From an uncultured bacterium (GTDB taxonomy: Bacteria > Patescibacteriota > Andersenbacteria > UBA10190 > CAIZMI01): a stretch of 62,323 nt of DNA. A program made the position numbers and the translations under genes. The stretch spans positions 1-62,323 of the forward strand of contig CAIZMI010000022.1 in NCBI GenBank assembly GCA_903934015.1, in the 5' to 3' direction. Shown here in pieces: positions 1-54,591 of this stretch (position 1 is its first letter; every line of letters starts with the position of its first letter). The notes beneath the pieces were generated by a model. It saw nothing but the letters and a program-made list of their open reading frames with translations, searched no databases and was not told the origin of the DNA.

Positions 1-24
1 ATGAGGGATGCGTAAACACTAACG

Positions 25-70
25 CTCTCTCCCCTTTGTAAGGGGAGATTAAGAGGGGTTTAGGGGTTTA
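25..70. repeat. Short palindromic intergenic repeat module, type M1 (CCCCTTT-loop-AAGGGG hairpin plus G-rich tail)
   Basis: Sequence ctctctcccctttgtaaggggagattaagaggggtttaggggttt. The same module type recurs at 44345, 45791, 49632, 50010, 59375 (rc) and 61172 (rc). Confidence 0.6.
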
Positions 71-218
71 TGCTCCCACTATTGCCTTATACACCGGCCT
101 AAATTTTTTTATTGCCGTTTTGTTGTATATGGCATTAGCGGTAGCAACAAAAAGTAATTTCAAGCCCAGCCGGCGGACGCCGGCAAACAAGGAGACGACT
201 TAATCAGTCGTTTCAAAA

Positions 219-521
219 ATGATTCAATATATTCTGTGCCTCCTGGGGAGGCACACACCTTTTGAGGTGTGTGGTGGAGACATCGTCTGTCTCCACTGTG
301 GGGTTGAGCTGTCAGACGGCCTTGACCGGCTGACCGCTTACATGTGTGGCACCCCCTGCCTAGATGTTTCGAGGGAGGAGGTTCAGGTCGTCGTCGGGAA
401 ACTGACGGCGACGGAAAAAAACAAACTCGTTCGGATGTCGGCATCCGAACGGGTGGGCTACCTCTCCGCCCGCACAAGATGCGGAGAAAGGATCGCGCGT
501 GCCGTTGCGCGATCAATGTAA
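219..521 (+). CDS. Hypothetical small Cys-rich protein (100 aa), first GC-rich cassette
   Basis: ATG ORF in the GC-rich block. It has CxxDxxCxxC-type cysteine pairs (CGGDIVCLHCG, CGTPC). An AAGGAG at 189-194 is separated from the ATG by a 6-bp hairpin (195-211). The antisense ORF 160-516 is judged a shadow. Confidence 0.4.
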   Translation: MIQYILCLLGRHTPFEVCGGDIVCLHCGVELSDGLDRLTAYMCGTPCLDVSREEVQVVVGKLTATEKNKLVRMSASERVGYLSARTRCGERIARAVARSM

Positions 522-711: not shown

Positions 712-935
712 AGACGGGAGAAAAGGTTTCCAACAATACCAAAGGTATTTAGAAAAAACTTCTTGTTAGTATTCCATCCCGTAAATTTTCAACATCAGGT
801 GAAAATTATGCGGGATCCACGTTTAATAACAATGGACCCCGCATCTCCGCCAGTTGGCGGATGCGGGGTGGTATGACTTAAGAAGTTAAGCAAAGATACT
901 TTCGGCGTTGTTGGAAGAAAAATTTCAGACCCGCC
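712..935 (+). repeat. Structured AT-rich repeat, copy 1 (core 728-916 bounded by 21-nt inverted termini)
   Basis: ttccaacaataccaaaggtat (728-748) pairs with atactttcggcgttgttggaa (896-916). The internal sequence is near-identical to copies at 2716-2890 and 7538-7710. The terminal hairpin is extended by a self-complementary insertion (837-868). Confidence 0.9.
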
Positions 936-2112: not shown

Positions 2113-2517
2113 ATGAAGACTATCGTCAACTGTTGTCCGCACTCCCTCCGTATCCGAGTCAACGTCGCCAATGTGGTGGCAGAACCGGATGTGACCGACA
2201 TTGTCGTCGAACCCCGCAAGGGCGACGACGGCAAACCAGTGCCGGCCCGCGTCAGCACGACGCCGGGCGGTCGTTTGGATGACATCGCCGGCATCGCGGT
2301 CTTCGGCCCGACGGTATTTGGTGCCGTCGAAAACCTGCCGGATCCCGCCACGGACACGATCTATATCGTGTCGGCGGTCGTTGGCGGTCGGCCCGAGGTG
2401 CAAACGCGACCGGACGTCTTCGTCTTGGGGACGGGCCCCAGTGACGGAACAGTCCGGTTCGGAGAAGGCCTCCAGAAGGGGCAGGTCTACGCGGTCACGC
2501 GCCTCATCAAGGCGTGA
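2113..2517 (+). CDS. Hypothetical protein (134 aa)
   Basis: ATG ORF in the GC-rich block with plausible protein-like composition. The start codon lies in a 6-bp hairpin, catggg-gttttaa-cccatg. The antisense 241-aa ORF (2005-2730) is judged a GC-rich shadow. Confidence 0.5.
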   Translation: MKTIVNCCPHSLRIRVNVANVVAEPDVTDIVVEPRKGDDGKPVPARVSTTPGGRLDDIAGIAVFGPTVFGAVENLPDPATDTIYIVSAVVGGRPEVQTRPDVFVLGTGPSDGTVRFGEGLQKGQVYAVTRLIKA

Positions 2518-2696
2518 TCGCGGTCCGTCCGTTTTTGTTCTTTCAGTTCTTTTTTTACAGAAAGGGTTTATAAAAATCCCGCCGATCGCTTGTCGATCGC
2601 GTCGGGTCGGCGTGTACACTGCCGGAAACTGAAACGTGTACAGAGGAGTCTTTATTGGCTCCTCTCCTTCTTTCAACCCACAAACTTTTTTGTGAG

Positions 2697-2908
2697 TTGA
2701 AACGAAAGAATATTTTTCCAACAACACCAAAGGTATTAAAAAAAACTTCTTGTAATATTCCCATCCCGTAAATTTTCAACATCAGGTGAAAATTATGCGG
2801 GATCCACGTTTAATAACGATGGACCCCGCATCAAGTGCGGGGTGGTATAAATCAAAAAGATAAGCAAAGATACTTTCGGTGTTGTTGGAAACGGTTTCGG
2901 TTCGATTT
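2697..2908 (+). repeat. Structured AT-rich repeat, copy 2 (core 2716-2890)
   Basis: Inverted termini 2716-2736 and 2870-2890. Conserved core cccgtaaattttcaacatcaggtgaaaattatgcgggatccacgtttaataacgatggaccccgcatcaagtgcgggg. Confidence 0.9.
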
Positions 2909-3318: not shown

Positions 3319-5697
3319 ATGAACATTAAAAGAAATGGTCGGCAAGCATTGCCGATCGACGCGCGGATTCCTGAAATTCTCGCAACGATGCGGAAAAATC
3401 AGGTCGTGATCGTCGAAGCCGAAACGGGTGCCGGAAAAAGCACTCGGATCGGACAAGCGGCCATGGAGGCTGATCGATGGCTTCGCATCATCCACACCTT
3501 ACCGCGTCGTTTGGCGGTGCGGTCGATCGGTAAACGTATTGCCGACGAAGTGGGTTGCGAGGTTGGGGATCTCGTGGGCTGGCGCCTGCGAGGAGAAACA
3601 CCGCGCGTGTCCTCGCGGACGCGCATGGTGTTAGAAATCGATCAGACGCTCGCGAATTGGATTCGCGAGCACCAGAAACTGCCGGAAGGCCTGATAATCG
3701 TGGACGAAGCGCACGAGCGCTCGATCCCGACAGACCTTTTGTTGGGTATGTTAAAGGAGTATTTGCCCAACTCTCCAAATACAAAAATCGTCATCATGTC
3801 GGCGACTATCGATACGCAGAAATTCTCTGCGTTTTTCGGTGGCGCGCCGGTGATTTCGGTGAGCGGGCGGTGTTTTCCTGTCAGCACGGAGGTGGTGCAG
3901 TTGGGAAAGTATGAGCACCACTCGAATGCGGCCGGGCGCGCGGGAACGATGGTGATCGATCGGTTTTTGGCTGGACGGCTCGCCGTTCCAACCGAAGATG
4001 GTTTGTCATCGCGCTTTGTTGCCGGTGGTACGGTTCTCGTCCTCTTGCCCGGAAAAGAGGATATTTCTGAAGTTCGTCACTTGCTTCAGAAATACGCGAA
4101 AGAGAAAGAGTGCGAAGAGGCCGTGGTTGTGATGGAATGCCACGGCGAGAGTCGCGAAGATGAACAAAGAGCGGTCTTGACGCCGGTCGTCGAAGGAACG
4201 TTACGTTTTGTTTGTGCCACGGAAGTGGTACGGACGTCCGTGACCGTTCCCGATGTGATCGGAGTTATTGATTCTCTTCAGATCAAGCGGATGAAAACCA
4301 ATCCCAAGGGGATTGGCCGTTTGATCAAAATCCCAGTGTCCCGCGCCGAGGCTGATCAGGCAAAAGGGCGCGCCGGCCGGACACAACCCGGGTTCTACAT
4401 CGCCTGTTCGTTTGAAGGTGAGTATGAACTTGGACGGTTGGCACCTTACCCGACACCCCAAATTCTGATGTCGCCTGCCACGAGTGTTTGTTTACAAGTG
4501 GCAGCGATCGGTCGGTCGGCACGGACGTTTGCGTTTGTTGATCCGCTCGATCAGGATCGGGTTGCGCTCGCAATCCGACGCCTGCAAGACATCGGGGCGT
4601 TGGATGAAGCAGAAAAAATCACCGAGGAGGGTGAGTTTCTGCTTCGTTTCTCTATTCAGCCGGAACGTGCAAAGTGCCTGATTACCGCAGCAAAATGTGG
4701 AGTTCTTCCCGAAACGGTAATCGCCTGCGCGGTTCTTGAAACGGAAGGTTTCTACTTCCGCGTAAAGAACAAAGGGGAGAAGTTGATCGTGGATGAAAGA
4801 ATCCTGCGGTTGATTCTTTCTTACAAGGGTGAGTACGGGAGCTGGCAACGGAATCCGGCAAAAAAGCCGGATGAAGTTGATTTAACCCCGGAAAAAATCC
4901 CCGACTGGGCGACGATCAAGGGGCCCGGGGTTTATGAGATTAACTGCGGAGCATCGCGTTTCGCGGAAAACGGAACACACTTCGTGTCGGACGTATTACG
5001 AAGATTTTGGGCCGGCGAGAGCAGGTCTGATTTCTTTGGGATTGTCCAGGCATACCGCATGTTCAAACAGGCGGAACGAGAAGTGCGAGAATTGGGGGGT
5101 CGTTCACGCAAGGAGCAGGACGACATCCTCTACAACTGGTGCAAGACGTATCAGTTGAATATGAAGCGGATTCGCATGGCAGAGGAAACCATGCAAATGA
5201 TTCGCGATGAGTTGTGGAGCACGGAATTTCGGTTGGAGAACGGCCTTGGTGAGTGGCGGGAATTTGACGCCAAAGCCCTGACCGACTCTCTGTTGTCGGG
5301 GATGACCGACAACGTAGCGATTCTTTCCGGGCGTGGTAATTACGAAAGCCGGCTCGGGTCGCTACAGATCGCATATTCGTGCGTGACCCCGCAGAACGTT
5401 CAAGTGGCGTTGGTGGATGACGTCCGCCAAGTGCCGACTGGACGTCTGCGGACTAGTTTTATACAGTTGGCCGGATGCGCGGCGGAATTGACAATTGAAC
5501 GGATCATGAAAGTGGTCCCGCACCTTTGCCAGACCCTGAACATGGGTGACCATCAATATGACTGGGAAAATGACGCGGTGACCCGTACTCAAGTTCTGAA
5601 CATGCGGGACTTGCAGGTGGGCACGCGGAAAGTGCCCAGTCCGACGGAAGACGCCCAGCGTGTTTTCGCCGGCGCTCTGGCAGATCAAATGATATAA
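3319..5697 (+). CDS. DEAH-box (DExH) helicase, HrpA/HrpB-like
   Basis: Walker A ETGAGKST, motif II VDEAHERS, motif III SAT, motif VI QAKGRAGR, then an HA2-like segment (FVDPLDQDRVALAIRRLQDIGALD). I chose the ATG at 3319 because AAGGAG lies 8 nt upstream; the ORF track starts at 3271. Confidence 0.85.
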   Translation: MNIKRNGRQALPIDARIPEILATMRKNQVVIVEAETGAGKSTRIGQAAMEADRWLRIIHTLPRRLAVRSIGKRIADEVGCEVGDLVGWRLRGETPRVSSRTRMVLEIDQTLANWIREHQKLPEGLIIVDEAHERSIPTDLLLGMLKEYLPNSPNTKIVIMSATIDTQKFSAFFGGAPVISVSGRCFPVSTEVVQLGKYEHHSNAAGRAGTMVIDRFLAGRLAVPTEDGLSSRFVAGGTVLVLLPGKEDISEVRHLLQKYAKEKECEEAVVVMECHGESREDEQRAVLTPVVEGTLRFVCATEVVRTSVTVPDVIGVIDSLQIKRMKTNPKGIGRLIKIPVSRAEADQAKGRAGRTQPGFYIACSFEGEYELGRLAPYPTPQILMSPATSVCLQVAAIGRSARTFAFVDPLDQDRVALAIRRLQDIGALDEAEKITEEGEFLLRFSIQPERAKCLITAAKCGVLPETVIACAVLETEGFYFRVKNKGEKLIVDERILRLILSYKGEYGSWQRNPAKKPDEVDLTPEKIPDWATIKGPGVYEINCGASRFAENGTHFVSDVLRRFWAGESRSDFFGIVQAYRMFKQAEREVRELGGRSRKEQDDILYNWCKTYQLNMKRIRMAEETMQMIRDELWSTEFRLENGLGEWREFDAKALTDSLLSGMTDNVAILSGRGNYESRLGSLQIAYSCVTPQNVQVALVDDVRQVPTGRLRTSFIQLAGCAAELTIERIMKVVPHLCQTLNMGDHQYDWENDAVTRTQVLNMRDLQVGTRKVPSPTEDAQRVFAGALADQMI

Positions 5698-5840: not shown

Positions 5841-7424
5841 ATGGACGAGAGAATGTCGGCGGTGATTACCGCCAACAAGGCGCGTCAAGCACGCGCGAAA
5901 GAATTAAACGCCCGTTCGGGCGAAAAAACTTTTCCCGTTTTATCGCGGGAAGAGTTGGCGACGTGGTTGCAAGAAAAACTGGACGGCGCGATTTCGGTCG
6001 CGACTGTCAAGGATTTAGAGCAACTGCGGTTGCCCCCGTTGGGTCAGGAGTTAGTCGACTTGGTGGTGACGGAAAACCCCGATTCGATTAAGGTTCTTGG
6101 TCGCGACTGCGCGGTGAATTATGTCGATTACCGCGAAGCACGTAAGTATCCGCAGGTGAAAATTGATTTTCGGGAAGAACAAGCCAACGATTGGCAAAAT
6201 CTCCCGGATGTTATTAATTTGCCGAGTGGTCGTGAAGTGGCTTTTTACTCGGCCATCGATGGGTACGGATATTACATCGATTGCCGGTCGTCGGAGTTCA
6301 AAGCGAAAGTTCGCGACGGCCTGAACGAAAGTCAGTGGTCAAACTGGCCGGAAACGGCACGACCTGCGATTGTTTTGCCCGACCCGGCGGATGAAAATTC
6401 CGTTGTCGCGGATGTCATTACAACTTGCTACGGCAAGTGCGTGGTGACGGCGACGGACCTGGTCGCCTTCGGGACTGTTGCCCTGAACCCGTATCGCAAT
6501 TACGAAAGCGATTCGTGGTTCAAGGTTCTCTGGACTCGCAACCGCACCGAGGCCGAGCAGGCGCACGATGCGGTTGTCGCAAAAATCGTCACCATTAAGG
6601 AGGAAGTAAAAAGGCGACGAGAGGAAGAAGAACGGCGGGCACGCGAGGAGAGCATGCTAGCGACTTTGCGGAGTCAAGCAGAGTTGGCCAAGGTCCGGGT
6701 CGGGGGATACTATGAATCTCTCTGTCACAAATCGGATATAGATCCCGTTCTTCGTGATCGGCTGTATGAACGGCGGTACGATTACCGCGCGCCTTCAACG
6801 GCGGACGGTCTTCGACGGTGGATTTTAGAGACCGACGCGCTTTGTGAAGAGGCGAAAACAGTCACCGCCGAAATCGAAGCGCGCAACGCGCGACGCGAAG
6901 CGCATCTCGAAGCCACGCGGAATTTATATTCGCAGGCCAGCTTGCTGGTTAATGAAGACGGAACGATTTCCGTCCTGCGTGGTAAAACATCGAAGATTGG
7001 ATCTTTCGAGGTCGACAATTCGGTCGGTGAGTGGTTCACGAGCGAGGTTTCAACCGATAATGAGGGTCGGTATTGCTCGTGGCAACCGGTTCGAACCGGA
7101 CGACTGGTGCGCTGTCGGGAGTTTTCCGGCGCTGGTAACCAAAAGGGTGAAGCGGAGTTCATCGTTCAGGACGGACAATTGACTCCGGGGGTTTGGAGTG
7201 TCGCCGAGGACGACAATGGTCGTTTCTTTTACCCTGTGATTTACTACAAGAACGGCCGGGAAATTGTTCCGGAAAAATTCGAAGTAGTGCGGGAAGTGAG
7301 GGAATGTCCGCGGGTCCACGGGCCGGTCGTAAAAGGCCCGCCCGCACCGGCTGGAAGTTTGGATATGACCAAACTTTTCGGTGGCGCTACTATGCCACGC
7401 GAAAAGCCAGTTCGCAGGCGGTAG
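5841..7424 (+). CDS. Hypothetical 527-aa protein coupled to the DEAH helicase (charged coiled-coil centre)
   Basis: AAGGAG lies 6 nt upstream of the ATG. Long GC-rich ORF with an EEVKRRREEEERRAREE coiled-coil-like stretch. I recognised no catalytic motif. Confidence 0.7.
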   Translation: MDERMSAVITANKARQARAKELNARSGEKTFPVLSREELATWLQEKLDGAISVATVKDLEQLRLPPLGQELVDLVVTENPDSIKVLGRDCAVNYVDYREARKYPQVKIDFREEQANDWQNLPDVINLPSGREVAFYSAIDGYGYYIDCRSSEFKAKVRDGLNESQWSNWPETARPAIVLPDPADENSVVADVITTCYGKCVVTATDLVAFGTVALNPYRNYESDSWFKVLWTRNRTEAEQAHDAVVAKIVTIKEEVKRRREEEERRAREESMLATLRSQAELAKVRVGGYYESLCHKSDIDPVLRDRLYERRYDYRAPSTADGLRRWILETDALCEEAKTVTAEIEARNARREAHLEATRNLYSQASLLVNEDGTISVLRGKTSKIGSFEVDNSVGEWFTSEVSTDNEGRYCSWQPVRTGRLVRCREFSGAGNQKGEAEFIVQDGQLTPGVWSVAEDDNGRFFYPVIYYKNGREIVPEKFEVVREVRECPRVHGPVVKGPPAPAGSLDMTKLFGGATMPREKPVRRR

Positions 7425-7464: not shown

Positions 7465-7497
7465 GGGAAGAATTCGTCGCATTCTTCCCTCTTTTTT
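7465..7497 (+). terminator. Rho-independent terminator after ORF 5841-7424
   Basis: gggaagaat (7465-7473) pairs with attcttccc (7481-7489), followed by tctttttt. Confidence 0.7.
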
Positions 7498-7519
7498 GTA
7501 GCCCATATTTCTTGTAGGC

Positions 7520-7726
7520 TTCAACGAAAGAATAATTTTCCAACTACACCAAAGGTATTAGATAAACTTCTTGTCATATTCCATCCCGTAAATTTTCAAC
7601 ATCAGGTGAAAATTATGCGGGATCCACGTTTAACAACGATGGACCCCGCATCAAGTGCGGGGTGGTGATAATTTAGAAGTTAAAAATAGATACTTTCGGT
7701 GTTGTTGAAAGAGATTTTAGACCCGA
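7520..7726 (+). repeat. Structured AT-rich repeat, copy 3 (core 7538-7710), last element before host genes
   Basis: Termini 7538-7558 and 7690-7710, with two more mismatches than copy 2. Same conserved core. The GC-rich block ends here. Confidence 0.9.
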
Positions 7727-9312: not shown

Positions 9313-10185
9313 ATGCTAAATATTGAGGAAAATGTAATATTATCTAAATTTTGTACATGGCACGTTGGTGGTCCGGCGCGATATTTTGTGCGTGTTTCAA
9401 CTATCCAAGATCTTAAAGAGGCGTTGTTGTGGGCACAAGAAAAAAAACTTGCTCATTTTGTTTTAGGCGGTGGTTCAAATATACTTTTTTCGGATGTTGG
9501 TTATGCTGGATTAATTATCAAAATTGAGGGACGGGGAGTTGTAATTAACGGATCCGAATTGATTGTTGAAGCTGGAGCAATCGCTCGTTTGGCGGTGCTG
9601 AAGGCGTCTGAACTGAATCTGGGCGGATTGGAACATTTGGCGGGAATTCCCGGAACAATTGGCGGATTGGTGCGTGGTAATGCCGGTGCTTTTGGGATGG
9701 AAACAAAAGACTCTTTGGTGCGCGTGCATGTTCTTCATAATGTTGGTAATGAATGGAAGGAGGAAATATTGGAGAGGAAAGATGTATATTTTTCATATCG
9801 TGATTCGTTGTTTAAAAAGGAAACCGGTAGTTATATTATTTGGGACGCGACATTTGCGTTAATACCTATTCCGAAAGATGTAATCTTGAAGCTTGTGAAT
9901 GATGATTTATCTGCCAGAAAAGACAAACAACCATACACTTTTCCCAGTGCCGGATCGGTATTTAAGAATCCGTCACTTGAAATATCGGCCGGTCGATTGA
10001 TTGAAGAGTGTGGTTGTAAAGGCTTAAAAATTGGTGGGGCGGAAGTGAGCACACAACACGCCAATTTTATTTTAAACAAGGGAGGGGCGACTTCTTTTGA
10101 TATCCATGCGTTAATTGAGGAGATTAAAAAAAGAGTTTTTGAAGCAAAAGGGGTAAAACTGGTTGAGGAAGTAATTGTTCTATAA
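9313..10185 (+). CDS. murB: UDP-N-acetylenolpyruvoylglucosamine reductase
   Basis: GGGSNILF FAD-binding motif, SAGSVFKNP motif, 290 aa. Confidence 0.85.
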   Translation: MLNIEENVILSKFCTWHVGGPARYFVRVSTIQDLKEALLWAQEKKLAHFVLGGGSNILFSDVGYAGLIIKIEGRGVVINGSELIVEAGAIARLAVLKASELNLGGLEHLAGIPGTIGGLVRGNAGAFGMETKDSLVRVHVLHNVGNEWKEEILERKDVYFSYRDSLFKKETGSYIIWDATFALIPIPKDVILKLVNDDLSARKDKQPYTFPSAGSVFKNPSLEISAGRLIEECGCKGLKIGGAEVSTQHANFILNKGGATSFDIHALIEEIKKRVFEAKGVKLVEEVIVL

Positions 10186-12492: not shown

Positions 12493-13517
12493 CAACGTCC
12501 AAAAGCGAAATTAAAGAAACTTCTAGTTTTGAGAAAACATTTGCGGGAAAGCGAGTATTAATTACCGGTGGTTTGGGTTTTATCGGGAGCAACATCGCGC
12601 ATGCGTTAGTGGAAATGGGTGCGGAAGTTACTGTTTTAGACGCATTACTTCCGCTTTATGGCGGAAACGAATTCAATGTCGCGGATATAAAAAATAAGAT
12701 AAAAGTGGTGATTGGAGATATCCGTGACGAGAAAATTGTTAATGAAGTGGTGGCGGGGCAGGATTTTATCTTTAATCTTGCGGCACAAGTAAGTTATATT
12801 GATAGCATTAACGAGCCATTTTTGGATTTAGATATTAATTGTTTGGGGCATTTGCGAGTCTTAGAAGCGGCGCGAAAATTTGCTCCGCAAACTAAAATCC
12901 TATTTTCTTCTTCGCGTTTGGCTTATGGTCGCATCATGACAACACCGGTGGATGAAAGTCATCCGACAAATCCTGTGAGTATGTATGGTGTGCATAAACT
13001 TACTGCCGAAAAATATTACCGTATCTATTTTGAAACGTATGGTTTGAAGTCGGCCGTAATTCGAATACCAAATCCGTATGGTCCGCGTCAACAAATGAAA
13101 CATAATAAATATTCGATTGTTGGTTGGTTTATTCGGCAGGCCTTAGAGGGGAAGGACATTACGATTTTTGGTGACGGAAAACAAGAAAGAGATTATTTGT
13201 ATATTGATGATATTGTTTCTGCTTTTTTGAAAGTGGCCTCTTCGGACAAAACAAACGGTGAGATTTATAATATTGGGACGCATGAGCGTGTCTGTTTTGT
13301 GGATATGGTAGACGCGATTTTGGCGGAAATTTCTACGGGTAAGAAAACACATATTCCATGGCCAAAAAATTACGAACGCAATGAAACCGGAAACTATATT
13401 GCCGATACGCGAAAAATAAAGCGCGCCGTTGGTTGGGAAGCGACGGTTTCGCTAAAATCCGGTATCACCGAAACGGTTGAATATTTTAAGGATAATAAAG
13501 AGCAATATTGGAAGTAG
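12489..13517 (+). CDS. NAD-dependent nucleotide-sugar epimerase/dehydratase (SDR)
   Basis: GGLGFIGSNIAHAL Rossmann motif, YGVHK (YxxxK), 342 aa. Confidence 0.85.
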   Translation: MTTSKSEIKETSSFEKTFAGKRVLITGGLGFIGSNIAHALVEMGAEVTVLDALLPLYGGNEFNVADIKNKIKVVIGDIRDEKIVNEVVAGQDFIFNLAAQVSYIDSINEPFLDLDINCLGHLRVLEAARKFAPQTKILFSSSRLAYGRIMTTPVDESHPTNPVSMYGVHKLTAEKYYRIYFETYGLKSAVIRIPNPYGPRQQMKHNKYSIVGWFIRQALEGKDITIFGDGKQERDYLYIDDIVSAFLKVASSDKTNGEIYNIGTHERVCFVDMVDAILAEISTGKKTHIPWPKNYERNETGNYIADTRKIKRAVGWEATVSLKSGITETVEYFKDNKEQYWK

Positions 13518-13533
13518 TTTATTATTAACAAGT

Positions 13534-13562
13534 AAAAAAAGACCTTCACGGGTGTGAAGGTG
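13534..13562. terminator. Bidirectional hairpin terminator between convergent genes
   Basis: aaaaaaa, then accttcac-gggt-gtgaaggt. The minus-strand reading is followed by a T7 run, directly after the stop of the 13563-14156 gene. Confidence 0.65.
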
Positions 13563-40960: not shown

Positions 40961-41509
40961 ATGAAAAACATTAAATTGTCTCCCAATTTTGAACCGGCGG
41001 TAAGCCATTTGGTGGAACAGTTGCGTGGTATTCGAACCGGGCGCGCATCTACCGGACTGGTGGAAGGTGTTACCGTTGACTACTATGGAACGCAAACCAG
41101 GTTAAAAGACATCGCGTCAATTACTACGCCCGGTGCCCAACTTATTCAAATAGAACCTTGGGATAAAAATGCCGTAAGTAATGTCGTGAAAGCGATTGAA
41201 ATTTCATCATTGGGCTTGAACCCAACTGTTGCCGGATCAATAATCCGTCTTAATTTGCCACAATTAACCGAAGAACGTCGTAAGGAATTAGTTAAGGTGG
41301 TTGGCAAATACGTGGAGGAAGCAAAAATTGCCGTTCGCAACGTGCGTGAAAAACTTTTGCGTGAAATTAAAAATCAGTTAGATGCCAAGGAACTTTCCGA
41401 AGATGAGCATCGAGGCGAAAAAGAAACGATTCAAAAAGAGGTAAATGATGCTTTGCAAGTAATAGATGAAGAAGGTAAAGAAAAAGAAAATGAACTTCTT
41501 ACGGTGTAA
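40961..41509 (+). CDS. frr: Ribosome recycling factor
   Basis: LRGIRTGRAS..., VTVDYYG, typical length of 182 aa and a charged C-terminal helix. Confidence 0.9.
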   Translation: MKNIKLSPNFEPAVSHLVEQLRGIRTGRASTGLVEGVTVDYYGTQTRLKDIASITTPGAQLIQIEPWDKNAVSNVVKAIEISSLGLNPTVAGSIIRLNLPQLTEERRKELVKVVGKYVEEAKIAVRNVREKLLREIKNQLDAKELSEDEHRGEKETIQKEVNDALQVIDEEGKEKENELLTV

Positions 41510-44344: not shown

Positions 44345-44433
44345 GTTTCGTTGTCGTTACCCTCCTTTATTAAAGGAGGGCGGGGGTGGATTTCGTCACA
44401 GTTTTCCGTCATTCCTGCAGGGGAGCAGGAATC
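44345..44433. repeat. Repeat mosaic M1 + M2
   Basis: ccctcctttattaaaggaggg hairpin plus tail (M1), then gtcattcctgcaggggagcaggaatc (M2, 8-bp stem attcctgc/gcaggaat). Confidence 0.7.
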
Positions 44434-44475
44434 AGTAGTCACCAATTTATCCAATTCTACATATATTTTTAATTA

Positions 44476-45528
44476 ATGTTTGATCGACTGTTTGGAAAAT
44501 TTTCACAGGATTTAGGAATTGATCTTGGTACGGCCAATACTCTTGTTTATAGTAAGGGAAGAGGGATTGTAATAAATGAACCATCGGTGGTGGCAATGAA
44601 TATCAAAACCAAGCAGATTTTGGCAATTGGTACGGAAGCGAGAAAAATGGTCGGTAAAACGCCCGCCCACATTGTGGCAACGCGTCCGCTTCGCGACGGT
44701 GTTATTTCCGATTTCGAAATCACGGAACACATGTTACGCTATTTTATCGACAAAGTGCATCATGATTCATTTTCATTGGTGCCAAGACCGCGGGTAATTA
44801 TTGGTGTGCCTTCCGGAGTAACCGAGGTAGAAAAACGCGCCGTGGAAGACGCGGCGATGCGCGCCGGCGCGCGCAAGGCATTTCTGATCGAAGAGCCAAT
44901 GGCGGCCGCGATTGGGTCCCGTCTTCCGGTGCAAGATTCGGCTGGAAATTTAATTGTTGATATTGGCGGTGGTACAACCGAGGTTGCGGTTATTTCGCTT
45001 GGGGGTGTGGTTGTTAGTCGTTCCTTGCGTATTGCCGGTGATGAATTGAGCGAAAACGTGATTCAATACGCGCGTGATGAATTTAATTTGCTTTTGGGGG
45101 AACGCACCGCGGAAGAAATAAAGATTGGGATCGGTTCGGCGTGGGAACTTTCAGAACCATTGGAAATGCCAATGCGAGGGCGTGATTTGGTAACGGGACT
45201 TCCTAAAGAGGTAATCGTAAACGACACGCAAATTCGTGAAGCATTAAGTCGATCCGTAAGAACGATTATTAATAGTGTTAAATCGACAGTAGAAGAGACT
45301 CCGCCGGAATTATTAGCGGATATTATGGAGCGGGGAATTGTGTTGTCTGGCGGTGGCGCGCTTTTGCGTGGTTTGGATAAATTAGTTGCTTCAACAACAC
45401 ATATTCCAACACGAGTGGCCGATGATCCGCTTACGGCCGTTGTGCGTGGTACAGGCATTGTTTTGGAAGAATTGGAATCACTGCAAGAAGTCTTGGCCCC
45501 ATCACCGTCCCCCAAGCCGTTGAGATAG
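44476..45528 (+). CDS. mreB: MreB paralog 2
   Basis: LGIDLGTANTLVY, IVDIGGGTTEVAVISLGG, VLSGGGALLRGLDK. Pro/Ser-rich C-terminal tail. Bracketed by repeat mosaics. Confidence 0.9.
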   Translation: MFDRLFGKFSQDLGIDLGTANTLVYSKGRGIVINEPSVVAMNIKTKQILAIGTEARKMVGKTPAHIVATRPLRDGVISDFEITEHMLRYFIDKVHHDSFSLVPRPRVIIGVPSGVTEVEKRAVEDAAMRAGARKAFLIEEPMAAAIGSRLPVQDSAGNLIVDIGGGTTEVAVISLGGVVVSRSLRIAGDELSENVIQYARDEFNLLLGERTAEEIKIGIGSAWELSEPLEMPMRGRDLVTGLPKEVIVNDTQIREALSRSVRTIINSVKSTVEETPPELLADIMERGIVLSGGGALLRGLDKLVASTTHIPTRVADDPLTAVVRGTGIVLEELESLQEVLAPSPSPKPLR

Positions 45529-45532
45529 TTAG

Positions 45533-45891
45533 TTCCTTCCCTTTGTAAGTGGCGCGGCGGATGCCCCGAAAACACTCGGTGAGTGTTTGAGAGGGTGCCT
45601 GCGCCGACATATCAGTGTCGTGCCGGGCGGGGATGGGTTTAGTCAGGATCACGCGCAGAACAGGGGCAGTTATTAGACAAAAAAAAAGCGTCTTTGCGAG
45701 CATCAGCGAAGCAATCTCCGCGTCGTAGCCGTCGCGCCGTATCTTTCCTTACCTAAGAACCTGTCCACAACTTGATTGGCGAGAAGGCGCGGATGGGTTT
45801 TGTCGTCGCCTTCCCCCTTTATTCAAAGGGGGACTAAGGGGGATTTCGTCGTCGTTCGTAGCGTGTTATTCCTGCCCGCGAGCAGGAATCC
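45533..45891. repeat. Repeat mosaic: M3, a 150-bp insert (carrying M5), M1, M2
   Basis: M3 45533-45640, insert 45641-45790 flanked by ggatgggttt direct repeats, M1 45791-45856, M2 45865-45891. M1 and M3 lie contiguous in reverse orientation at 61172-61330. Confidence 0.8.
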
Positions 45892-45910
45892 GTGTAGAGA
45901 TAAAACAACT

Positions 45911-47368
45911 TTATTTCTTATTCAGAAAAACAATTTTTGAGGTGGTTGGTTTCGCTGTTGCGAAATTAATACCAAATTTCGAAATGTAATCAAAATATTT
46001 CATCGCGCTATCATCTTTTAAATTTTTCAATGTATCCCTTTTGCCGAATTTTATTTCTGCCTTGACTAGGGTCATTTTTTTTCTTTCTTGCGCTGATAAT
46101 CCGGAATTATCCATGCGCTCTCGCAGAGCGTAAAAGTGCGCGTAAAGCATTCTTTCTTTCCAGTCATCATCTTTCATATATGCCATCTGCTTTTTCGCGA
46201 ACTCATAATTTGGATTCATACTAAGCGCCAGTTGAAGCATTTTTTTACCCATTTTCTCTTCACCACACGCAAAATGGCAAACAGCTTTATTTGCGAACAT
46301 TCGATAAATATCGTGGCGAACCACAAATTCCTTAATTAGTAAATCAAAGACTTCATACCAAGTATCCAGGGCGGAAACAAAACTATTTTGCTTCATTAGT
46401 TTATTGGCTTTCTCAAGTTTCATCCAACACTTGTCGCCACCTATTTTATTAACGTCCCAAATTAATTCGGCATCGGCGGACGGGTTTTCTAAATTCTTTT
46501 GTTGAGGCGACTTTCCATTCAAATCTTTTTGGGGAGAGGTGTTTTGAACATCAATAAAGGCGTGTGTTATTTCATTAATAATGGGGGTGTTATCATATTT
46601 GTCTGGAACCAGTCCCAAAATTATTGATACAAATTCAATCGGGTTTTTAGATTCAATATTTTGGAACCATTCAACAATTTTTTCAACCGAGATATATTGA
46701 TTGATTTCCGCCTTTACCAGAAGCTCCGCAAGTCGAAAACGCGCTTGTTTGGCGTCGATTATTCTTTCGTCATTATTTGACTTTTCTTTTTTTTCTTTTG
46801 CAAAGCCAAATGCGTCCTTGGCGGTTAATTTCTTTTTATCTTTTCTAAAAATATTTCTAATATTTTCCGTTGTTTCTACAGTTGGAAGAACATTATTATC
46901 GGCTCCCACCAACTCCCAGTGATCTCCCACTTTGGCAACGCGATTAAAAAATATGTTTCCGGGGCGTAAGTTATGCGTGGCGGATTTTTCTTTTACTTCA
47001 TAAATCGTGTCGGTTTTTAAATCGCGCATTGTCAATCCTTCGTCAATCCGTACTGAAATAACTTCAAAAAAACCAAAGTTCTGCGTTTTGATGAGATCGT
47101 CATAAAGACTCAATAGTGTCTGGTCTGTATGTTGTTTGGTAACCTCTCGATATTCCTGAATTAAGTTGTTACCATTTTCCAATTTAAAGTCGAAAAGAAC
47201 CCATTCATTGAATATTCCTTCTTGCGTTGTTGACAGTTCAAGGTCAGCAAAATCCTCAATCTTTTTGAGGTTAAAAAATTCCAAAACCGCACCCTTTATT
47301 TCGTCGGAATAAAATGGGTTTGCCGTGAAGAAGTCAACTATTTGTTTGAGGCTTCCACTTGGTAGCAT
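45911..47368 (-). CDS. Hypothetical 485-aa protein with C-terminal TPR-like repeats
   Basis: Long clean ORF. The C-terminal helical repeats (ALDTWYEVFDLLIKE...MLQLALSMNPNYEFAKKQ) look TPR-like. I did not recognise the N-terminal domain. Confidence 0.75.
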   Translation of the reverse strand: MLPSGSLKQIVDFFTANPFYSDEIKGAVLEFFNLKKIEDFADLELSTTQEGIFNEWVLFDFKLENGNNLIQEYREVTKQHTDQTLLSLYDDLIKTQNFGFFEVISVRIDEGLTMRDLKTDTIYEVKEKSATHNLRPGNIFFNRVAKVGDHWELVGADNNVLPTVETTENIRNIFRKDKKKLTAKDAFGFAKEKKEKSNNDERIIDAKQARFRLAELLVKAEINQYISVEKIVEWFQNIESKNPIEFVSIILGLVPDKYDNTPIINEITHAFIDVQNTSPQKDLNGKSPQQKNLENPSADAELIWDVNKIGGDKCWMKLEKANKLMKQNSFVSALDTWYEVFDLLIKEFVVRHDIYRMFANKAVCHFACGEEKMGKKMLQLALSMNPNYEFAKKQMAYMKDDDWKERMLYAHFYALRERMDNSGLSAQERKKMTLVKAEIKFGKRDTLKNLKDDSAMKYFDYISKFGINFATAKPTTSKIVFLNKK

Positions 47369-47527
47369 GAGATATTTGGATGGTATAAGTTATTGGGATA
47401 ATTTTCAACAGGAGATAGTGTCTAATATGAAAAAGTCTCCTTAAGTAGTAAGCCGTCCGGATCCCTTTTCTTCTGCTTAATTCAATGGTACCTGAATTTA
47501 CAAGCTTACCAAGTGCCAATACCGCGT

Positions 47528-47605
47528 GTCATTCCTGCCCGCGAGCAGTAATCCGGGTGTTAGGGTCCGTCACCGGCTGAAGAAGTAACCGGATCCTGGT
47601 TAGTG
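47528..47605. repeat. Repeat mosaic M2 + M4
   Basis: gtcattcctgcccgcgagcagtaatcc (M2), then gttagggtccgtcaccggctgaagaagtaaccggatcctggttagtg (M4). Confidence 0.7.
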
Positions 47606-47618
47606 TAAACATGGAATT

Positions 47619-47709
47619 TTCACGGTTATGAGTGAAAAAACGTGAAAAAGTGTGTAAAAATCACTATTATTCACGCTTAACTTGACAAAACCGTGAAATA
47701 ATGTATGAT
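47619..47709 (+). promoter_or_regulatory. Fic promoter (TTGACA-16 nt-TATGAT) preceded and overlapped by five TTCACG/CGTGAA half-sites
   Basis: -35 at 47682-47687 and -10 at 47704-47709. Motif copies: ttcacgg 47619, gtgaaaa 47632, cgtgaaa 47641, ttcacgc 47670, cgtgaaa 47692. Confidence 0.55.
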
Positions 47710-47715
47710 GCATGT

Positions 47716-48600
47716 ATGCCCAAAACATCAAAAATGTTCAATCAAATTAACGTATTACGCAAGAGGTATTTCGAAGCAATCACCGGTAAGGAATCCTTGT
47801 TAAGGTTAATTTCCGAAAGTGAAGTTGCCGAACAGGTATATAATTCCAATGCCATCGAAAACAGCACGCTTACCTTTGAAGAAACAGAAAAAATTCTTCT
47901 TCAAATTGACTTGGATAGATTTATCACGGAACGTGAAATTTTTGAGGCAAAAAATCTTGCTCGCGTAGTTTCGTATATAGACAAAAGAGCAAAGGAGTTA
48001 GAATTGAATGTTGAAGTAATTTTGTCGTTACATAAAATGCTTCTTTCGAATATCCGTGATGAGGTGGCGGGTCGTTTTAGGAAAGAAAAAGAGTTTGTGC
48101 GTGTTGGTAGTCATATTGCGCCTCGCTCGGAGGAAGTGATTGGTCGGCTTGAAAAAATGTTTACCGAATATCATTCTGCTAGCCATGAAAATATTATTAA
48201 GCGTATCGCAAAACTGCATCTTGAATTTGAATATACACACCCGTTTATTGATGGAAATGGCAGGATCGGGCGCGTAATTAATAACTTCTTATTAACGCGC
48301 GAAGGATTTGTTCCGATTAACATTAAATTTATTGATCGGAATAAATACTATGACGCTTTTAGCGAGTATGATGAAAAAGGCGCGACGGGAATAATGGAAG
48401 AAATTGTGGGAAAAGCACTAACCAATAGTTACCACAAACGCTTAGCGTATTTAGAGAGTAAGAACATTACCACTCTTTCTGATTTTGCGAAAAATAATAA
48501 AATTTCGCACTCCAACTTGATCAATAAAGCCAACCGGCAAACCATAGAGGCGTTCTTGGAAAAAGGTATTTGGAAAATCGGAGAAGACACAACAGTTTAA
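47716..48600 (+). CDS. Fic-family protein (class II, N-terminal inhibitory helix)
   Basis: Fic motif HPFIDGNGRIGR and inhibitory motif SNAIEN ([ST]xxxE[GN]). The track start 47701 lies inside the -10 box, so ATG 47716 (possibly leaderless) or 47734 is more likely. Confidence 0.85.
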   Translation: MPKTSKMFNQINVLRKRYFEAITGKESLLRLISESEVAEQVYNSNAIENSTLTFEETEKILLQIDLDRFITEREIFEAKNLARVVSYIDKRAKELELNVEVILSLHKMLLSNIRDEVAGRFRKEKEFVRVGSHIAPRSEEVIGRLEKMFTEYHSASHENIIKRIAKLHLEFEYTHPFIDGNGRIGRVINNFLLTREGFVPINIKFIDRNKYYDAFSEYDEKGATGIMEEIVGKALTNSYHKRLAYLESKNITTLSDFAKNNKISHSNLINKANRQTIEAFLEKGIWKIGEDTTV

Positions 48601-48615
48601 AATAATCAGTCGTCT

Positions 48616-48775
48616 GTCATTCCTGCCCGCGAGCAGGAATCCGCCGTCGAATTGCGCCGTCTCCCTTCTTTCGACAAATGGCGCGGCGGATGCCCCGAGA
48701 ACATCCTGTGAATGTTCGAGAGGGTGCCAGCGCCGGCACATCAGTGCCGTGGGTACGAAGAGGGGTTCCGTCGTC
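48616..48775. repeat. Repeat mosaic M2 + M3 (+ truncated M1 junction)
   Basis: gtcattcctgcccgcgagcaggaatcc, then an M3 copy. Its internal hairpin carries two compensatory base-pair changes relative to the 45.5-kb copy. Confidence 0.75.
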
Positions 48776-49022
48776 GTACTTTTCTTTTCTCGTAACTATC
48801 CTTATATCTTCCAACGTTCCTTCATCTTCGCCACCAGCGGTTCCGCAATCTTTTTACTTTCTTCAAAATTCAATCGTTCAAACTTATCCAACTTCCGTTG
48901 TAATTCGTTTGGTAATCCCTTATTATCCGCCCAACTTTTTAAGGCTTGTTGTAATTTTGCGTCGGCAAAGAAGGCGATCGCATCCGCGTCCCTAGGGCTT
49001 GGTAATTAATAAACGTCTCATC

Positions 49023-49583
49023 TTATGCCCAATCCATCTCCAAATACAACTGCTTCTCAATCAAAAATCTTTCAACGTATGTTGAATACGCTTCAAGATT
49101 TTGTTCAATCAAAGACAGTCGTCTTTGAAGCGTATTGAACATAATCTTGAAACGTTTATTAATTACCAAGCCCTTAATAATTTTATTTTCCAAACTGTCG
49201 CTTTCTTCCTTAAGAATGTTTATTAAAGCTTCATATTGATCTTCATCCAGATCCAAAGACTTCAGAAATTTCTCACTAAACTCAAAAGCCATTTTGCCGT
49301 GATTGGCGCGCAAAGTATCTTCATCCGCTTTCGACGCTTTTCCGATATCGTGCAAAAGCGCGCCAACAGAAACCACTTCCAAATCCGCGTCGGGGAAGTG
49401 GGTGGCCAGATGTAGGGCAAAACTGCACACCACAACACTGTGGTGGTACATAATTTCCCAGTCGTTAAAACTAAAAGCCGGGTTATCTTGAAAAGACTGC
49501 TTGAGAAATTTTTCCGCCGCCTCAGTATTGTCCATAGGGATATGGTAGCGTAACTGTTGCGCAAAGCGAATGGGGTCCAACAT
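49023..49583 (-). CDS. HD-domain phosphohydrolase (186 aa)
   Basis: H...HD signature (MYHHSVVVCSFALHLA ... GALLHDIGKA). Confidence 0.8.
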   Translation of the reverse strand: MLDPIRFAQQLRYHIPMDNTEAAEKFLKQSFQDNPAFSFNDWEIMYHHSVVVCSFALHLATHFPDADLEVVSVGALLHDIGKASKADEDTLRANHGKMAFEFSEKFLKSLDLDEDQYEALINILKEESDSLENKIIKGLVINKRFKIMFNTLQRRLSLIEQNLEAYSTYVERFLIEKQLYLEMDWA

Positions 49584-49585
49584 CG

Positions 49586-49765
49586 TCCGTCTTTGCGAGC
49601 CCGCCGATGTAGCGGATGAAGCAAGCCTCGTGTCGTCGTTTTCCCTCCCTTTGTAAGGGAGGGATAAAGGGTGGGTTTAGTCGTAGCGTGTCATTCCTGC
49701 CCGCGAGCAGGAATCCGTGTATTAGGGTCCGTCACTGGCTGAAGACGTAACCGGACCCTGGTTGG
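49586..49765. repeat. Repeat mosaic M5 + M1 + M2 + M4
   Basis: gtctttgcgagc...gcggatgaagcaagcc (M5), ccctccctttgtaagggaggg (M1), gtcattcctgcccgcgagcaggaatcc (M2), agggtccgtcactggctgaagacgtaaccggaccct (M4). Confidence 0.75.
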
Positions 49766-50009: not shown

Positions 50010-50132
50010 GCCCCGCCTCCTTCCCTTATTCAAGAGAAGGCGAGGATGGGTTACGTAATCATCATTCTTTGCGAGGCGTTTCAGCGTCGAAGTAATCCCC
50101 TAGGTCATTCCTTTGTGCTAGTGAATAGGCAC
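50010..50132. repeat. Degenerate repeat mosaic M1 + M5 + M2-like
   Basis: ccgcctccttcccttattcaagagaaggcgaggatgggtt, then cattctttgcgaggcgtttcagcgtcgaagtaatcc, then gtcattcctttgtgctagtgaatagg. Confidence 0.55.
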
Positions 50133-50194: not shown

Positions 50195-52030
50195 ATGCAA
50201 AAAATTATTGGAAAAGAAAAGTCGTTGAGTGATCTTCTGTCTAATAAGAAGTACACGATTCATTATTATCAACGTGAGTATCGTTGGGGTAAAAAACAGA
50301 TTGAAGAACTAATCGATGATTTGACCGGTGAATTTTATGATTCTTTTGATATAGAAAATTCACGCGATGAAGTTGAACGATATGGTCATTATTATTTGGG
50401 TTCGATTGTTTTTAGTAGTGGTGAAAACCAAGCAGCCATTATTGATGGGCAACAAAGGCTCACTTCTTTAACACTATTGTTAATATATCTAAATAATCTT
50501 CAAAAAAACAAAGTTGCAGAAAACAAAGTTGCGATTGATCATCTTGTATTTTCTGATAGACATGGCGTGCGATCATTCAATATACACGTTGATGAAAGGG
50601 AAAAATGTTTAAATGCTTTATATACAGACAATATTGATGGTTTTGATACAAGCAACAATGTTCCAGAAAGTGTAAAAAACATATTTGAAAGGTATAAAGA
50701 TATTGCTGAAATATTTCCAGAGGACCTTAAAGATAGAGCCTTACCGTTTTTTATCGATTGGCTAATTTACAATGTCGATTTGGTTGAGATTTCCGCATAT
50801 ACCGAACAAGATGCTCATAAAATTTTTGTTTCTATGAATGATCGTGGGTTGAGCCTAACTCCAACGGAAATGTTAAAAGGGTTCTTGCTTTCTGAAATTA
50901 AATCAGATAAAAACAGAAGTGAAGCGAATGAAATATGGAAAAATCAAATCATGGAGCTTTCTACTATCGGGCCGAAAGAGGATGATGATTTTTTCAAAAA
51001 TTGGTTAAGAGCACAATACGCAAATTCTATTCGTGAAACAAAAAAAGGCGCCGTTAATGAAGATTTTGATATTATAGGAACAACTTTTCACAAGTGGGTC
51101 AGGGAGAATTCTGAGGAAATGGGCCTAGAAAACACTGAAGCCTATGAAAAATTCGTGATGATATATTTACCAAAATATGCGAGGGTTTATAAAACCCTTA
51201 AAAAATATTCCATGGAGTTTTCTTCTGACTATGAGTGTGTATTTTTCAATGCTGATAGAAATTTTACGTTACAATTTCAAGTGATTCTCTCGGCTGTTGA
51301 CCCAGAAGATAATGATGAAATCACTAAGAAAAAGATTCAAATAGTCAGCAGGTATGTTGATCAATATATTGCTCGTCGTAGTTTCAATTTCAAGATGCTC
51401 GGATACAACACGATAAAAAATGCGATGTTTACCATTTCAAAGAAAATACGTAGAAAATCAGTCGAGGAGCTGAAAGAGACTTTGCAAAAAGAGTTACAGA
51501 ATATGGATTTTGGTTTGGACGCAATTGACGATTTTTATTTAAGTCAATTTACAATAAAAAATATGCGCCATGTGTTGGCTAGGATGACTTATTATATCGA
51601 AAATGGGAGTGGTTTAAATACAAAATTCGATGATTATGTGAATCGAGAAATCAGAAATCCGTACGATATCGAGCATATTATGGCTGATCATTTTGAGCGA
51701 TTTGCAGATCAATTTCAAGAAGAAAAAGCTTTTCATGAGGCTAGAAATAAATTTGGAGATTTGCTGATTTTGCCACAGGACAAAAATAGAAGTTTTAATG
51801 ACTCAAAATACGATGAAAAATTACCAATGTATTTTGGTGAGAATTTGCTTGCTAAATCTCTAAATGGAAAATGCTATCAGAATAATCCACAATTTTTACG
51901 GTTTATTGAGGGCGAGAGACTTGAGTTTAAGGCGATTGATGATTTTACAAAAGGTAGTATCCAATCTCGGCAAGAGCTTTATAAGACAATTTGTAAAAAG
52001 ATTTGGGATGCTGAATTATTGAGTAGATAG
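50195..52030 (+). CDS. DUF262/DUF1524 (GmrSD-like) two-domain nuclease, first gene of the RM operon
   Basis: N-terminal YQREYRWGKKQIEELIDDL and IIDGQQRLTSL (ParB/DGQQR motif). The C-terminal region IEHIMADH...LILPQDKNRSFND looks like a His-Me/HNH finger. Confidence 0.8.
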   Translation: MQKIIGKEKSLSDLLSNKKYTIHYYQREYRWGKKQIEELIDDLTGEFYDSFDIENSRDEVERYGHYYLGSIVFSSGENQAAIIDGQQRLTSLTLLLIYLNNLQKNKVAENKVAIDHLVFSDRHGVRSFNIHVDEREKCLNALYTDNIDGFDTSNNVPESVKNIFERYKDIAEIFPEDLKDRALPFFIDWLIYNVDLVEISAYTEQDAHKIFVSMNDRGLSLTPTEMLKGFLLSEIKSDKNRSEANEIWKNQIMELSTIGPKEDDDFFKNWLRAQYANSIRETKKGAVNEDFDIIGTTFHKWVRENSEEMGLENTEAYEKFVMIYLPKYARVYKTLKKYSMEFSSDYECVFFNADRNFTLQFQVILSAVDPEDNDEITKKKIQIVSRYVDQYIARRSFNFKMLGYNTIKNAMFTISKKIRRKSVEELKETLQKELQNMDFGLDAIDDFYLSQFTIKNMRHVLARMTYYIENGSGLNTKFDDYVNREIRNPYDIEHIMADHFERFADQFQEEKAFHEARNKFGDLLILPQDKNRSFNDSKYDEKLPMYFGENLLAKSLNGKCYQNNPQFLRFIEGERLEFKAIDDFTKGSIQSRQELYKTICKKIWDAELLSR

Positions 52031-52032
52031 AT

Positions 52033-54588: not shown

Positions 54589-54591
54589 ATT

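Follow-up and report, generated by a model that had tools for sequence, protein, structure and literature searches.

The REP/BIME and REPIN elements reported from proteobacteria are extragenic palindromic units that occur as mosaics at the 3' ends of transcription units and form hairpins in single-stranded DNA or in RNA. Correia (CREE) and ERIC elements, reportedly bacterial MITEs, are intergenic repeats of 100-190 bp with terminal inverted repeats of 20-26 bp; co-transcribed copies form long hairpins, and close relatives are polymorphic for them. Among the attC sites of integrons are chromosomal-array repeats that closely resemble one another, for example the VCRs. In mosaic phages, as in the pdif-flanked modules of Acinetobacter plasmids, short conserved non-coding borders allow the exchange of unrelated gene blocks. 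Here we compare these systems, together with attenuators and riboswitches, with a repeated element, the rod, from a DNA stretch of 62,323 nt (the window), which is the forward strand of contig CAIZMI010000022.1 (GCA_903934015.1; Patescibacteriota, Andersenbacteria, UBA10190, CAIZMI01).

The window contains three rods of 173-189 nt each in direct orientation (Table 1), all of which fall within an 8-kb island; the remaining 54 kb contain none. They are confined to this GC-rich cargo island, which separates murG from murC in a Patescibacteria-like genome. GC content is 52-54% over the window's initial 7.7 kb and about 41% beyond, and murG lies directly upstream of the island on L001, a longer contig of the same strain. 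The rods divide the island into three gene groups and are all oriented with the co-directional genes. Their own GC content is host-like (38-41%), that of the cargo ORFs 54-64%. Based on their anatomy, island restriction and sequence-level constraint, on the absence of RNA-type covariation and on the variable cargo in relatives, we propose, with a probability of about 40%, that the rod is a sequence-constrained DNA palindrome marking the boundaries of cargo modules, where modules are gained, lost or exchanged. It is an island-specific composite palindrome of two 21-bp inverted arms around an invariant four-motif core, and copies of it lie in direct orientation where each cargo transcription unit ends. 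The arms and core would act as sequence-specific recognition sites at the DNA level, and modules might be excised as loops, duplicated or exchanged by recombination at the rods. We infer both the recognition of arms and core by a protein and the movement of modules by such recombination; the rods are proposed as places of exchange because direct repeats flank the gene modules. The fold of the rod would be a by-product of the palindrome, one that a read-through transcript would also adopt.

Each of the described systems shares some features with the rod. Like REP/BIME elements, it is extragenic, follows terminator-like hairpins and has a core built from hairpin units, which reuses the CCCGCAT/ATGCGGG stem of one of several such hairpin families in the host. 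In contrast to them, it is longer (175-190 nt), has non-palindromic 21-bp inverted arms and a three-way-junction centre, and is limited to one island, with three copies in the 62-kb window and no RAYT-type transposase seen with them there. Like Correia and ERIC elements, the rod is palindromic and extragenic, lies in a 3' position and has inverted-repeat arms; however, it has no target-site duplication, its homology extends past the inverted repeats, its copies are not dispersed, and its centre is more conserved than the sequence adjoining its ends. As with attC sites, the rods are direct repeats that bound co-directional foreign modules, with an imperfect palindrome, AAC…GTT ends, conserved imperfections and a composition resembling the host, but they are too long, have a conserved centre, lack extrahelical bases, a central spacer and an integrase, and are accompanied by terminators and long spacers. 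The rod also resembles phage linkers and pdif borders in being conserved, non-coding and located at module borders. Phage linkers, however, are not long palindromes, and pdif sites are 28-bp Xer sites of alternating orientation, whereas no exchange was observed at the rods. Finally, four segments of the rod can pair as 1:2 and 3:4 or as 2:3 (with 1:4) at similar energies, as in attenuators and riboswitches, yet the rod is devoid of a terminator U-tract, a sequestered ribosome-binding site, an aptamer family, covariation and strand asymmetry.

Table 1. Rods, their parts and the surrounding features of the cargo island (window coordinates)
Feature	Position	Strand	Details
Rod copy 1	728-916		189 nt; arms 728-748 and 896-916
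Copy 1, inner helices	757-764/880-887; 774-783/862-871		helix 2; P3
Copy 1, centre	784-791/800-807; 808-844		hairpin A; H2
Copy 1, extra palindromic tip	846-861		TCCGCC-AGTT-GGCGGA; fourth junction arm in MFE
Rod copy 2	2716-2890		175 nt; arms 2716-2736 and 2870-2890; the copy named in the sequence-only reading
Copy 2, nested fold	2761-2770/2836-2845; 2771-2778/2787-2794; 2795-2831		P3; hairpin A; H2
Copy 2, alternative hairpins	2765-2801; 2824-2842		H1; H3
Rod copy 3	7538-7710		173 nt; abuts host murC promoter region; 3' half orthologous to L012:1-76
Invariant core	2761-2845		four copies of ATGCGGGRTSS (or complement) in alternating orientation
Core motif copies	2761-2769; 2795-2805; 2821-2831; 2835-2845		a (partial); b; c; d
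Rod 5' flank, conserved	2672-2715	+	…TTGTGAGTTGAAACGAAAGAATATTT
Terminator-like hairpin	2642-2675	+	T-rich tail; closes ORF134 unit, ~40 nt 5' of rod 2
Terminator-like hairpin	7465-7499	+	with TCTTTTTTGT; closes helicase/P527 unit, ~40 nt 5' of rod 3
Small ORF in core	2795-2863	+	MRDPRLITMDPASSAGWYKSKR (stop); AGGTGA five bases upstream (AGGTGA-N5-ATG, 2784-2797)
Candidate relic	125-190	+	rod 3' arm and downstream flank, 5' of first cargo gene
Cargo group 1	219-521	+	ORF100
Cargo group 2	985-1662; 2113-2517	+	ORF225; ORF134
Cargo group 3	3319-5697; 5841-7424	+	HrpA/HrpB-like DEAH helicase; conserved partner P527 (527 aa)

The whole rod is a palindrome, as indicated by its match to its own reverse complement (E = 1e-13). 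It ends in terminal inverted repeats with arms of 21-22 bp that are 86-91% complementary, and the 21-mer arm occurs six times at no more than three mismatches versus 0.01 expected. The sequence-only reading had described the outer 21-bp helix, with one A.C mismatch and one G.U pair, a second helix (aacttctt/aagaagtt) in copy 1 and three central hairpins, H1, H2 and H3. We recovered all of these at the positions given, the hairpins in each of the three copies, and the self-complementary extra palindrome of copy 1 is real as well. Both the A.C mismatch (position 14) and the G.U pair (position 17) of the outer helix are identical in 3/3 copies. The homology between rods runs on past the arms, for ~50 nt upstream and 20-50 nt downstream, and therefore the unit has fuzzy edges and no precise recombination junctions. 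The 5' flank of rod 2, which comes after a terminator-like hairpin as its counterpart at rod 3 does, is common to copy 3 (7497-7537) and, weakly, to copy 1 (690-727), and its 15-mer GTTGAAACGAAAGAA also occurs at 8753-8767 of L014, in an unrelated cargo island without a rod. In the candidate relic, positions 150-190 closely match 917-950 and the arm part is weak (about 55-60%).

The long rod with competing central pairings, as claimed, is real and proved to be very stable, with z-scores between -7.3 and -8.7 against shuffled sequences. For copy 2 the minimum free energy (MFE) of the RNA was -78.5 kcal/mol versus -41.7 +/- 4.3 for the shuffles (z -8.6), and the corresponding z-scores for copies 1 and 3 were -8.1 and -7.3. 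The MFE structure is identical to the centroid and represents a rod ending in a nested three-way junction, which is closed by P3, a helix absent from the earlier description. Inside this junction are hairpin A, which is a shortened H1, and the entire H2, both compatible with each other and with P3, while copy 1 adds a fourth arm. The three central hairpins had been described as mutually exclusive; indeed, H2 is incompatible with either neighbour, H1 or H3, but these two can form together. Similarly, the competing pairings behind the claim that only alternating conformations are possible are real, but constrained folding resolved them into two global folds and not three hairpins. The nested fold accounts for 84-93% of the ensemble and a fold with H1, a small H2 and H3 for 6-15%, the energy gap between the nested and the H1+H3 fold being 1.1-2.1 kcal/mol. 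Exclusive conformations of similar energy, as looked for in attenuators, are thus present in the rod. This bistability arises because the core consists of four alternating copies of one 11-nt motif, and therefore the pairings a:d with b:c and a:b with c:d are both possible. Motif copies b, c and d were found by pattern search (three per rod), and the partial copy a was recognized by eye.

The fold shows no strand asymmetry. For the 212-nt stretch around copy 2, the minus strand folds at -77.5 kcal/mol and the plus strand at -78.5 with RNA parameters (-39.2 versus -40.4 with DNA parameters), the two strands differ by at most 3.2 kcal/mol in all three copies, and the outer helix has one wobble and one mismatch on either strand. 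In the alignment of the three copies, which as a set of three sequences has low power, none of the 62 base pairs was altered on both sides, and 10 of the 185 cells were broken by uncompensated single changes located in the outer helix, helix 2 and the base of P3. In every case, the substitutions within helices weaken the pairing. Variable columns make up 2/81 of the core, 4/44 of the arms and 21/47 of the linkers (Fisher p = 3e-9 and 1e-4), and the invariance of the core takes in its loops and junction bases. No compensatory population SNPs were found, because all contigs are clonal. The earlier view that the structure rather than the sequence is preserved has to be turned around: the primary sequence is kept while the linkers drift, with no compensatory change in any pair. 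The same holds for the insertion in copy 1, which had been taken as structure-preserving. It matches at 92% a free-standing palindrome at L001:1584-1621, ~1 kb upstream of the rod and outside the window, which is an indel relative to L014, a distant relative; therefore the insertion represents either a palindromic unit or an indel of the tip, self-complementary by construction, and it is not compensatory evolution.

The interpretation of the rod as an RNA expression platform of the attenuator or riboswitch type is not supported by these data, given its strand-symmetric fold, the lack of covariation, of an Rfam match and of a U-tract, and the unrelated genes downstream. The covariance models of Rfam 15 gave no match in the window at gathering thresholds, and only chance-level matches at E<=10 (e.g. 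sRNA162 at 23 bits versus a gathering score of 78), so that membership in a known family, which had been considered, received no match beyond chance level. Among other candidates, 6S RNA, a retron msr/msd, bridge RNA or omega-RNA and a tmRNA-type att site were rejected for want of a matching RNA model and of a reverse transcriptase, IS110 or TnpB gene. As noted before for H3, which is no canonical terminator, there is no U-tract after any hairpin of the rod, and the scan for terminator-like sites inside the rods found none. No sequestered ribosome-binding site of a downstream gene was found; the genes that follow rods 1-3 start 69, 429 and 146 nt beyond them, respectively, and are mutually unrelated. 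Plus-strand sigma70-like promoters were detected neither in nor before the rods, and hand inspection of the 5' flank yielded poor spacings only. The small ORF within the core has 17-22 codons across the three copies and its tail is retained in L012, a locus from a relative; it is probably incidental to the palindrome, because the minus strand likewise reads MRGPSLLNVDPA up to a stop. Nothing in these comparisons favours an RNA-level function for the rod, and together they suggest a DNA-level boundary repeat rather than an RNA switch.

The available material comprises three full rods, one half copy and one free-standing hairpin. Exact and degenerate scans of genome, metagenome and viral collections with four patterns (the core 23-mer, the gapped arm pair, the 3' arm 20-mer and the H3 module) returned no matches, and BLAST of phage and plasmid records only a 33-nt chance match. 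A chimeric six-frame peptide query for ORFs miscalled across rods recovered nothing but the 135-aa ORF of the window itself, a 45-aa peptide encoded by the rod had no match in an exhaustive search, and an nhmmer profile of the three copies detected no diverged copy in 16 loci. The literature search for such repeats in Patescibacteria produced nothing relevant. The order of the array is conserved at >=99.98% identity in at least 14 contigs from several samples, so no movement or shuffling of modules was seen. Short-read assemblies break inside the rod core.

The orthologous site was compared in relatives of the window lineage (loci L011-L015). In L015, with 57% MurC identity, murG and murC are separated by only 97 nt, and this empty site shows that the island is an insertion. 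L014 (60% MurC identity) carries a different GC-rich cargo of 3.6 kb at the site. For L013 (81%), only the murC-upstream flank was assembled, with other cargo and with murG off the contig. The half copy of the rod was found in L012, where MurC is 83% identical: the 3' half of the rod occupies the orthologous place and the contig breaks inside the core. This half-rod is 93% identical (69/74), as compared with 62% for murC third codon positions (binomial p = 8e-10) and 80% for the adjacent spacer, and so it reflects purifying selection or recent transfer. No rod is present at the murC-upstream site of L011 and L013 (81-82% MurC identity). The cargo of L013 and L014 varies without rods, so variability at this site does not depend on them. 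The intergenic regions of the related islands are also unusually structured (z -3.3 to -6.1).

Several other conserved sequences were observed around this site. About 600 nt of non-coding DNA located just after murG (window 1-66, L001:1234-1850, L014:6400-7010) are 75% identical between genomes whose MurC proteins are only 60% identical, with long invariant blocks, and open with a consensus TTGACA-17-TATTAT/TATAAT promoter. An Rfam search of this region and of the related loci found no match; it is a candidate for a new ncRNA or for the platform of the variable island. The L014 island is flanked by the 11-mers TCAGGAGAGAA / TTCTCTCCTGA as an inverted pair (L014:6634-6644 and 9851-9861). The right-hand 11-mer is kept upstream of murC in L011 (270-280) and L013 (810-820), the window lineage has the left one only (L001:1425-1435), with rod copy 3 in the right-hand place, and the empty site of L015 has neither.

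The CCCGCAT/ATGCGGG-type core motif also occurs in free-standing REP-like hairpins elsewhere in the genome, and the window contains other hairpin mosaics at 44.3-50.1 kb. There, the REP-like hairpin GTCATTCCTGCCCGCGAGCAGGAATCC is present in five copies (44399-49763), along with two longer repeat pairs (45547-45622/48676-48751 and 47524-47601/49686-49763). These repeats form BIME-like mosaics around mreB, a 485-aa ORF on the minus strand, a Fic gene (47701-48600) and an HD-domain gene (49023-49583). Another small unit, which recurs in many intergenic regions, combines a hairpin of the CCCTCC…GGAGGG type with a G-rich tail behind it (…GGGGTGGATTT / GGGTGGGTTT). This unit was found in the window at 25-70, 44360-44395, 45812-45850, 49645-49680 and 50010-50050 and in other loci at L001:1250-1290 and L014:6975-7010, and is thus kept in a distant relative.

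Functional assignment of the cargo genes by Pfam, PHROGs, PADLOC, NCBIfam and PDB sequence searches was limited to the HrpA/B-like helicase and a weak match of ORF134. The latter matches the PADLOC entry 'Unk_01, small protein sometimes fused to CARF' (E = 2e-8) and two PHROGs with no assigned function. The two-gene module of helicase and P527 recurs on four other contigs, all of them without rods. A helicase with a ~500-aa partner was observed, for example, at L006:8043-11515, L010:454-4049 and L008:2-3666, in at least five lineages and always within GC-rich inserts. The module has no PADLOC match, the AlphaFold model of P527 (pLDDT 65) matched no PDB fold, and no P527 relatives were found in viral contigs. 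Recombinase and transposase domains were found neither in the island nor in any scanned ORF of the window, and no Y1-transposase domain was seen in the 62 kb; no integron integrase was found in the window or adjoining the array, where murG is the gene directly upstream. Three independent assemblies break at 1788-1814, in the AT-rich spacer between ORF225 and ORF134 (L005 ends at 1788, and L019 and L020 start at 1814), and this breakpoint may mark a repeat or a structural variant.

Four other explanations of the rod deserve consideration. It is a doubtful but serious alternative that the rod is a cis-acting RNA hairpin in read-through or polycistronic transcripts of the island, being the target of a double-strand-specific RNase or a 3'/5' stabiliser, with a quasi-continuous duplex of ~45 bp (the 21-bp outer helix, helix 2 and P3) that separates transcription units. 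The intergenic RNase III sites of T7 and transcribed Correia, ERIC and BIME repeats provide precedents. All rods share the orientation of the co-directional genes and lie between transcription units, the fold is well defined (centroid equal to MFE) and of high stability (z about -8), P3 has several G.U pairs on the plus strand, and the intergenic regions of related islands are structured too. On the other hand, terminator-like hairpins precede rods 2 and 3, no plus-strand promoter lies before or in the rods, the minus strand folds equally well, and the arm substitutions are all disruptive, with no compensatory changes; moreover, loops and junctions are as invariant as stems, which an RNase III site would not need. 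Far less probable is a bistable regulatory RNA of the attenuator or riboswitch kind, possibly driven by translation of the mini-ORF, the Shine-Dalgarno sequence of which lies in hairpin A. Its two folds are indeed near-isoenergetic, and the AGGTGA-N5-ATG start opens a short ORF that all copies retain, as does the L012 tail. However, this bistability follows automatically from the four alternating motif copies and the fold is strand-symmetric, while a U-tract terminator, a downstream helix sequestering a ribosome-binding site, covariation and an Rfam family are all missing, and the unrelated downstream genes are 69-429 nt away.

Among the DNA-level explanations, it seems unlikely that the rod is a selfish non-autonomous element of the MITE or REPIN type, mobilized in trans by a transposase from elsewhere in the genome and functionless for the island. 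Its terminal inverted repeats, whole-element palindrome and lack of convincing coding capacity have the appearance of such an element, and further points in this direction are its occurrence upstream of murC in L012 but not in L011 or L013, the 5' flank motif of L014, where no rod is present, the assemblies that break within the core and a genome rich in REP/BIME-like hairpins. Yet none of the three copies has a target-site duplication, the similarity continues past the inverted repeats, the copies are all in the 8-kb island, and no further copy appeared in any searched collection or among ORFs called across a rod. The divergence in situ is also non-uniform, with linkers drifting and arms and core kept, which inert insertions would not show. 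An attC-like folded-DNA site is slightly harder still to accept; here, a module and its rod would constitute a cassette of an integron-like array, with the recombinase encoded elsewhere and the conserved promoter-bearing non-coding region after murG as the platform. This explanation draws on the position of the rods at the borders of co-directional gene modules, on the outermost TTCCAAC…GTTGGAA, which match the RYYYAAC/GTTRRRY boxes at 6/7 positions each, on the conserved stem imperfections and the branched centre that the stem encloses, on the cargo of relatives, which differs 3' of a conserved region bearing a TTGACA-17-TATAAT promoter, and on the possible half-site relic 5' of the first cargo gene. 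It is opposed by the lack of an integrase beside the array or in the window, by the length of the rods (173-189 nt versus 57-141 for attC), by a continuous 21-bp stem with no extrahelical bases, bulge or unpaired central spacer, by a centre that is the most conserved part of the rod and would be variable in attC, by the terminators and 40-430 nt of non-coding DNA around the rods, and by the absence of cassette shuffling across samples. The wider version, in which the entire murG-murC site of this lineage is a new kind of cassette platform, integron-like but without a linked integrase, and the rods are folded-DNA sites for a recombinase from elsewhere, appears very unlikely; the ~600-nt promoter-bearing region would then be a candidate ncRNA or a platform like attI, with interchangeable GC-rich modules after it.

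The restriction of the rods to the island, their position at module borders, their direct orientation and the uncompensated conservation of arms and core argue for a cis-acting, protein-recognised DNA element and against both a decaying MITE and an RNA switch. The weak points of this boundary reading are that there is no recombinase, no observed rearrangement, fuzzy edges and few copies. In addition, the high identity of the core could result from gene conversion and that of the L012 half-rod from recent transfer. If the rods are functional boundaries, they would show how bacteria of the candidate phyla radiation, with their tiny genomes, take up and swap accessory or defence-like genes at one fixed place in the chromosome and without an obvious linked recombinase. 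If they are mere palindromic repeats, they offer a caution: a stable and bistable-looking fold with z about -8 can stem purely from DNA palindromy, and no riboswitch or attenuator should be called without strand asymmetry or covariation.

A few features distant from the rods were also recorded. ARAGORN called a tRNA-Asn with the unusual anticodon ATT at 41202-41275 on the minus strand, antisense in the ribosome-recycling-factor gene (40961-41509), which is probably a false positive; apart from this doubtful call far from the island, tRNA and tmRNA searches found none in the window, L001, L011, L013 and L014. The window includes a defence cluster at 50195-56997, composed of a GmrSD-type endonuclease, a type I/III-like restriction helicase and a fused type I methylase/specificity protein, and an AAA_14/DUF4143 STAND-like ATPase at 59560-60993. 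In L006, the GC-rich island is bounded by 30-nt AATACT-rich inverted repeats located 10 kb apart (3466-3495 and 13509-13538) and contains repeated AT-rich intergenic units resembling promoters or operators (e.g. 6400-6485 and 7555-7643).
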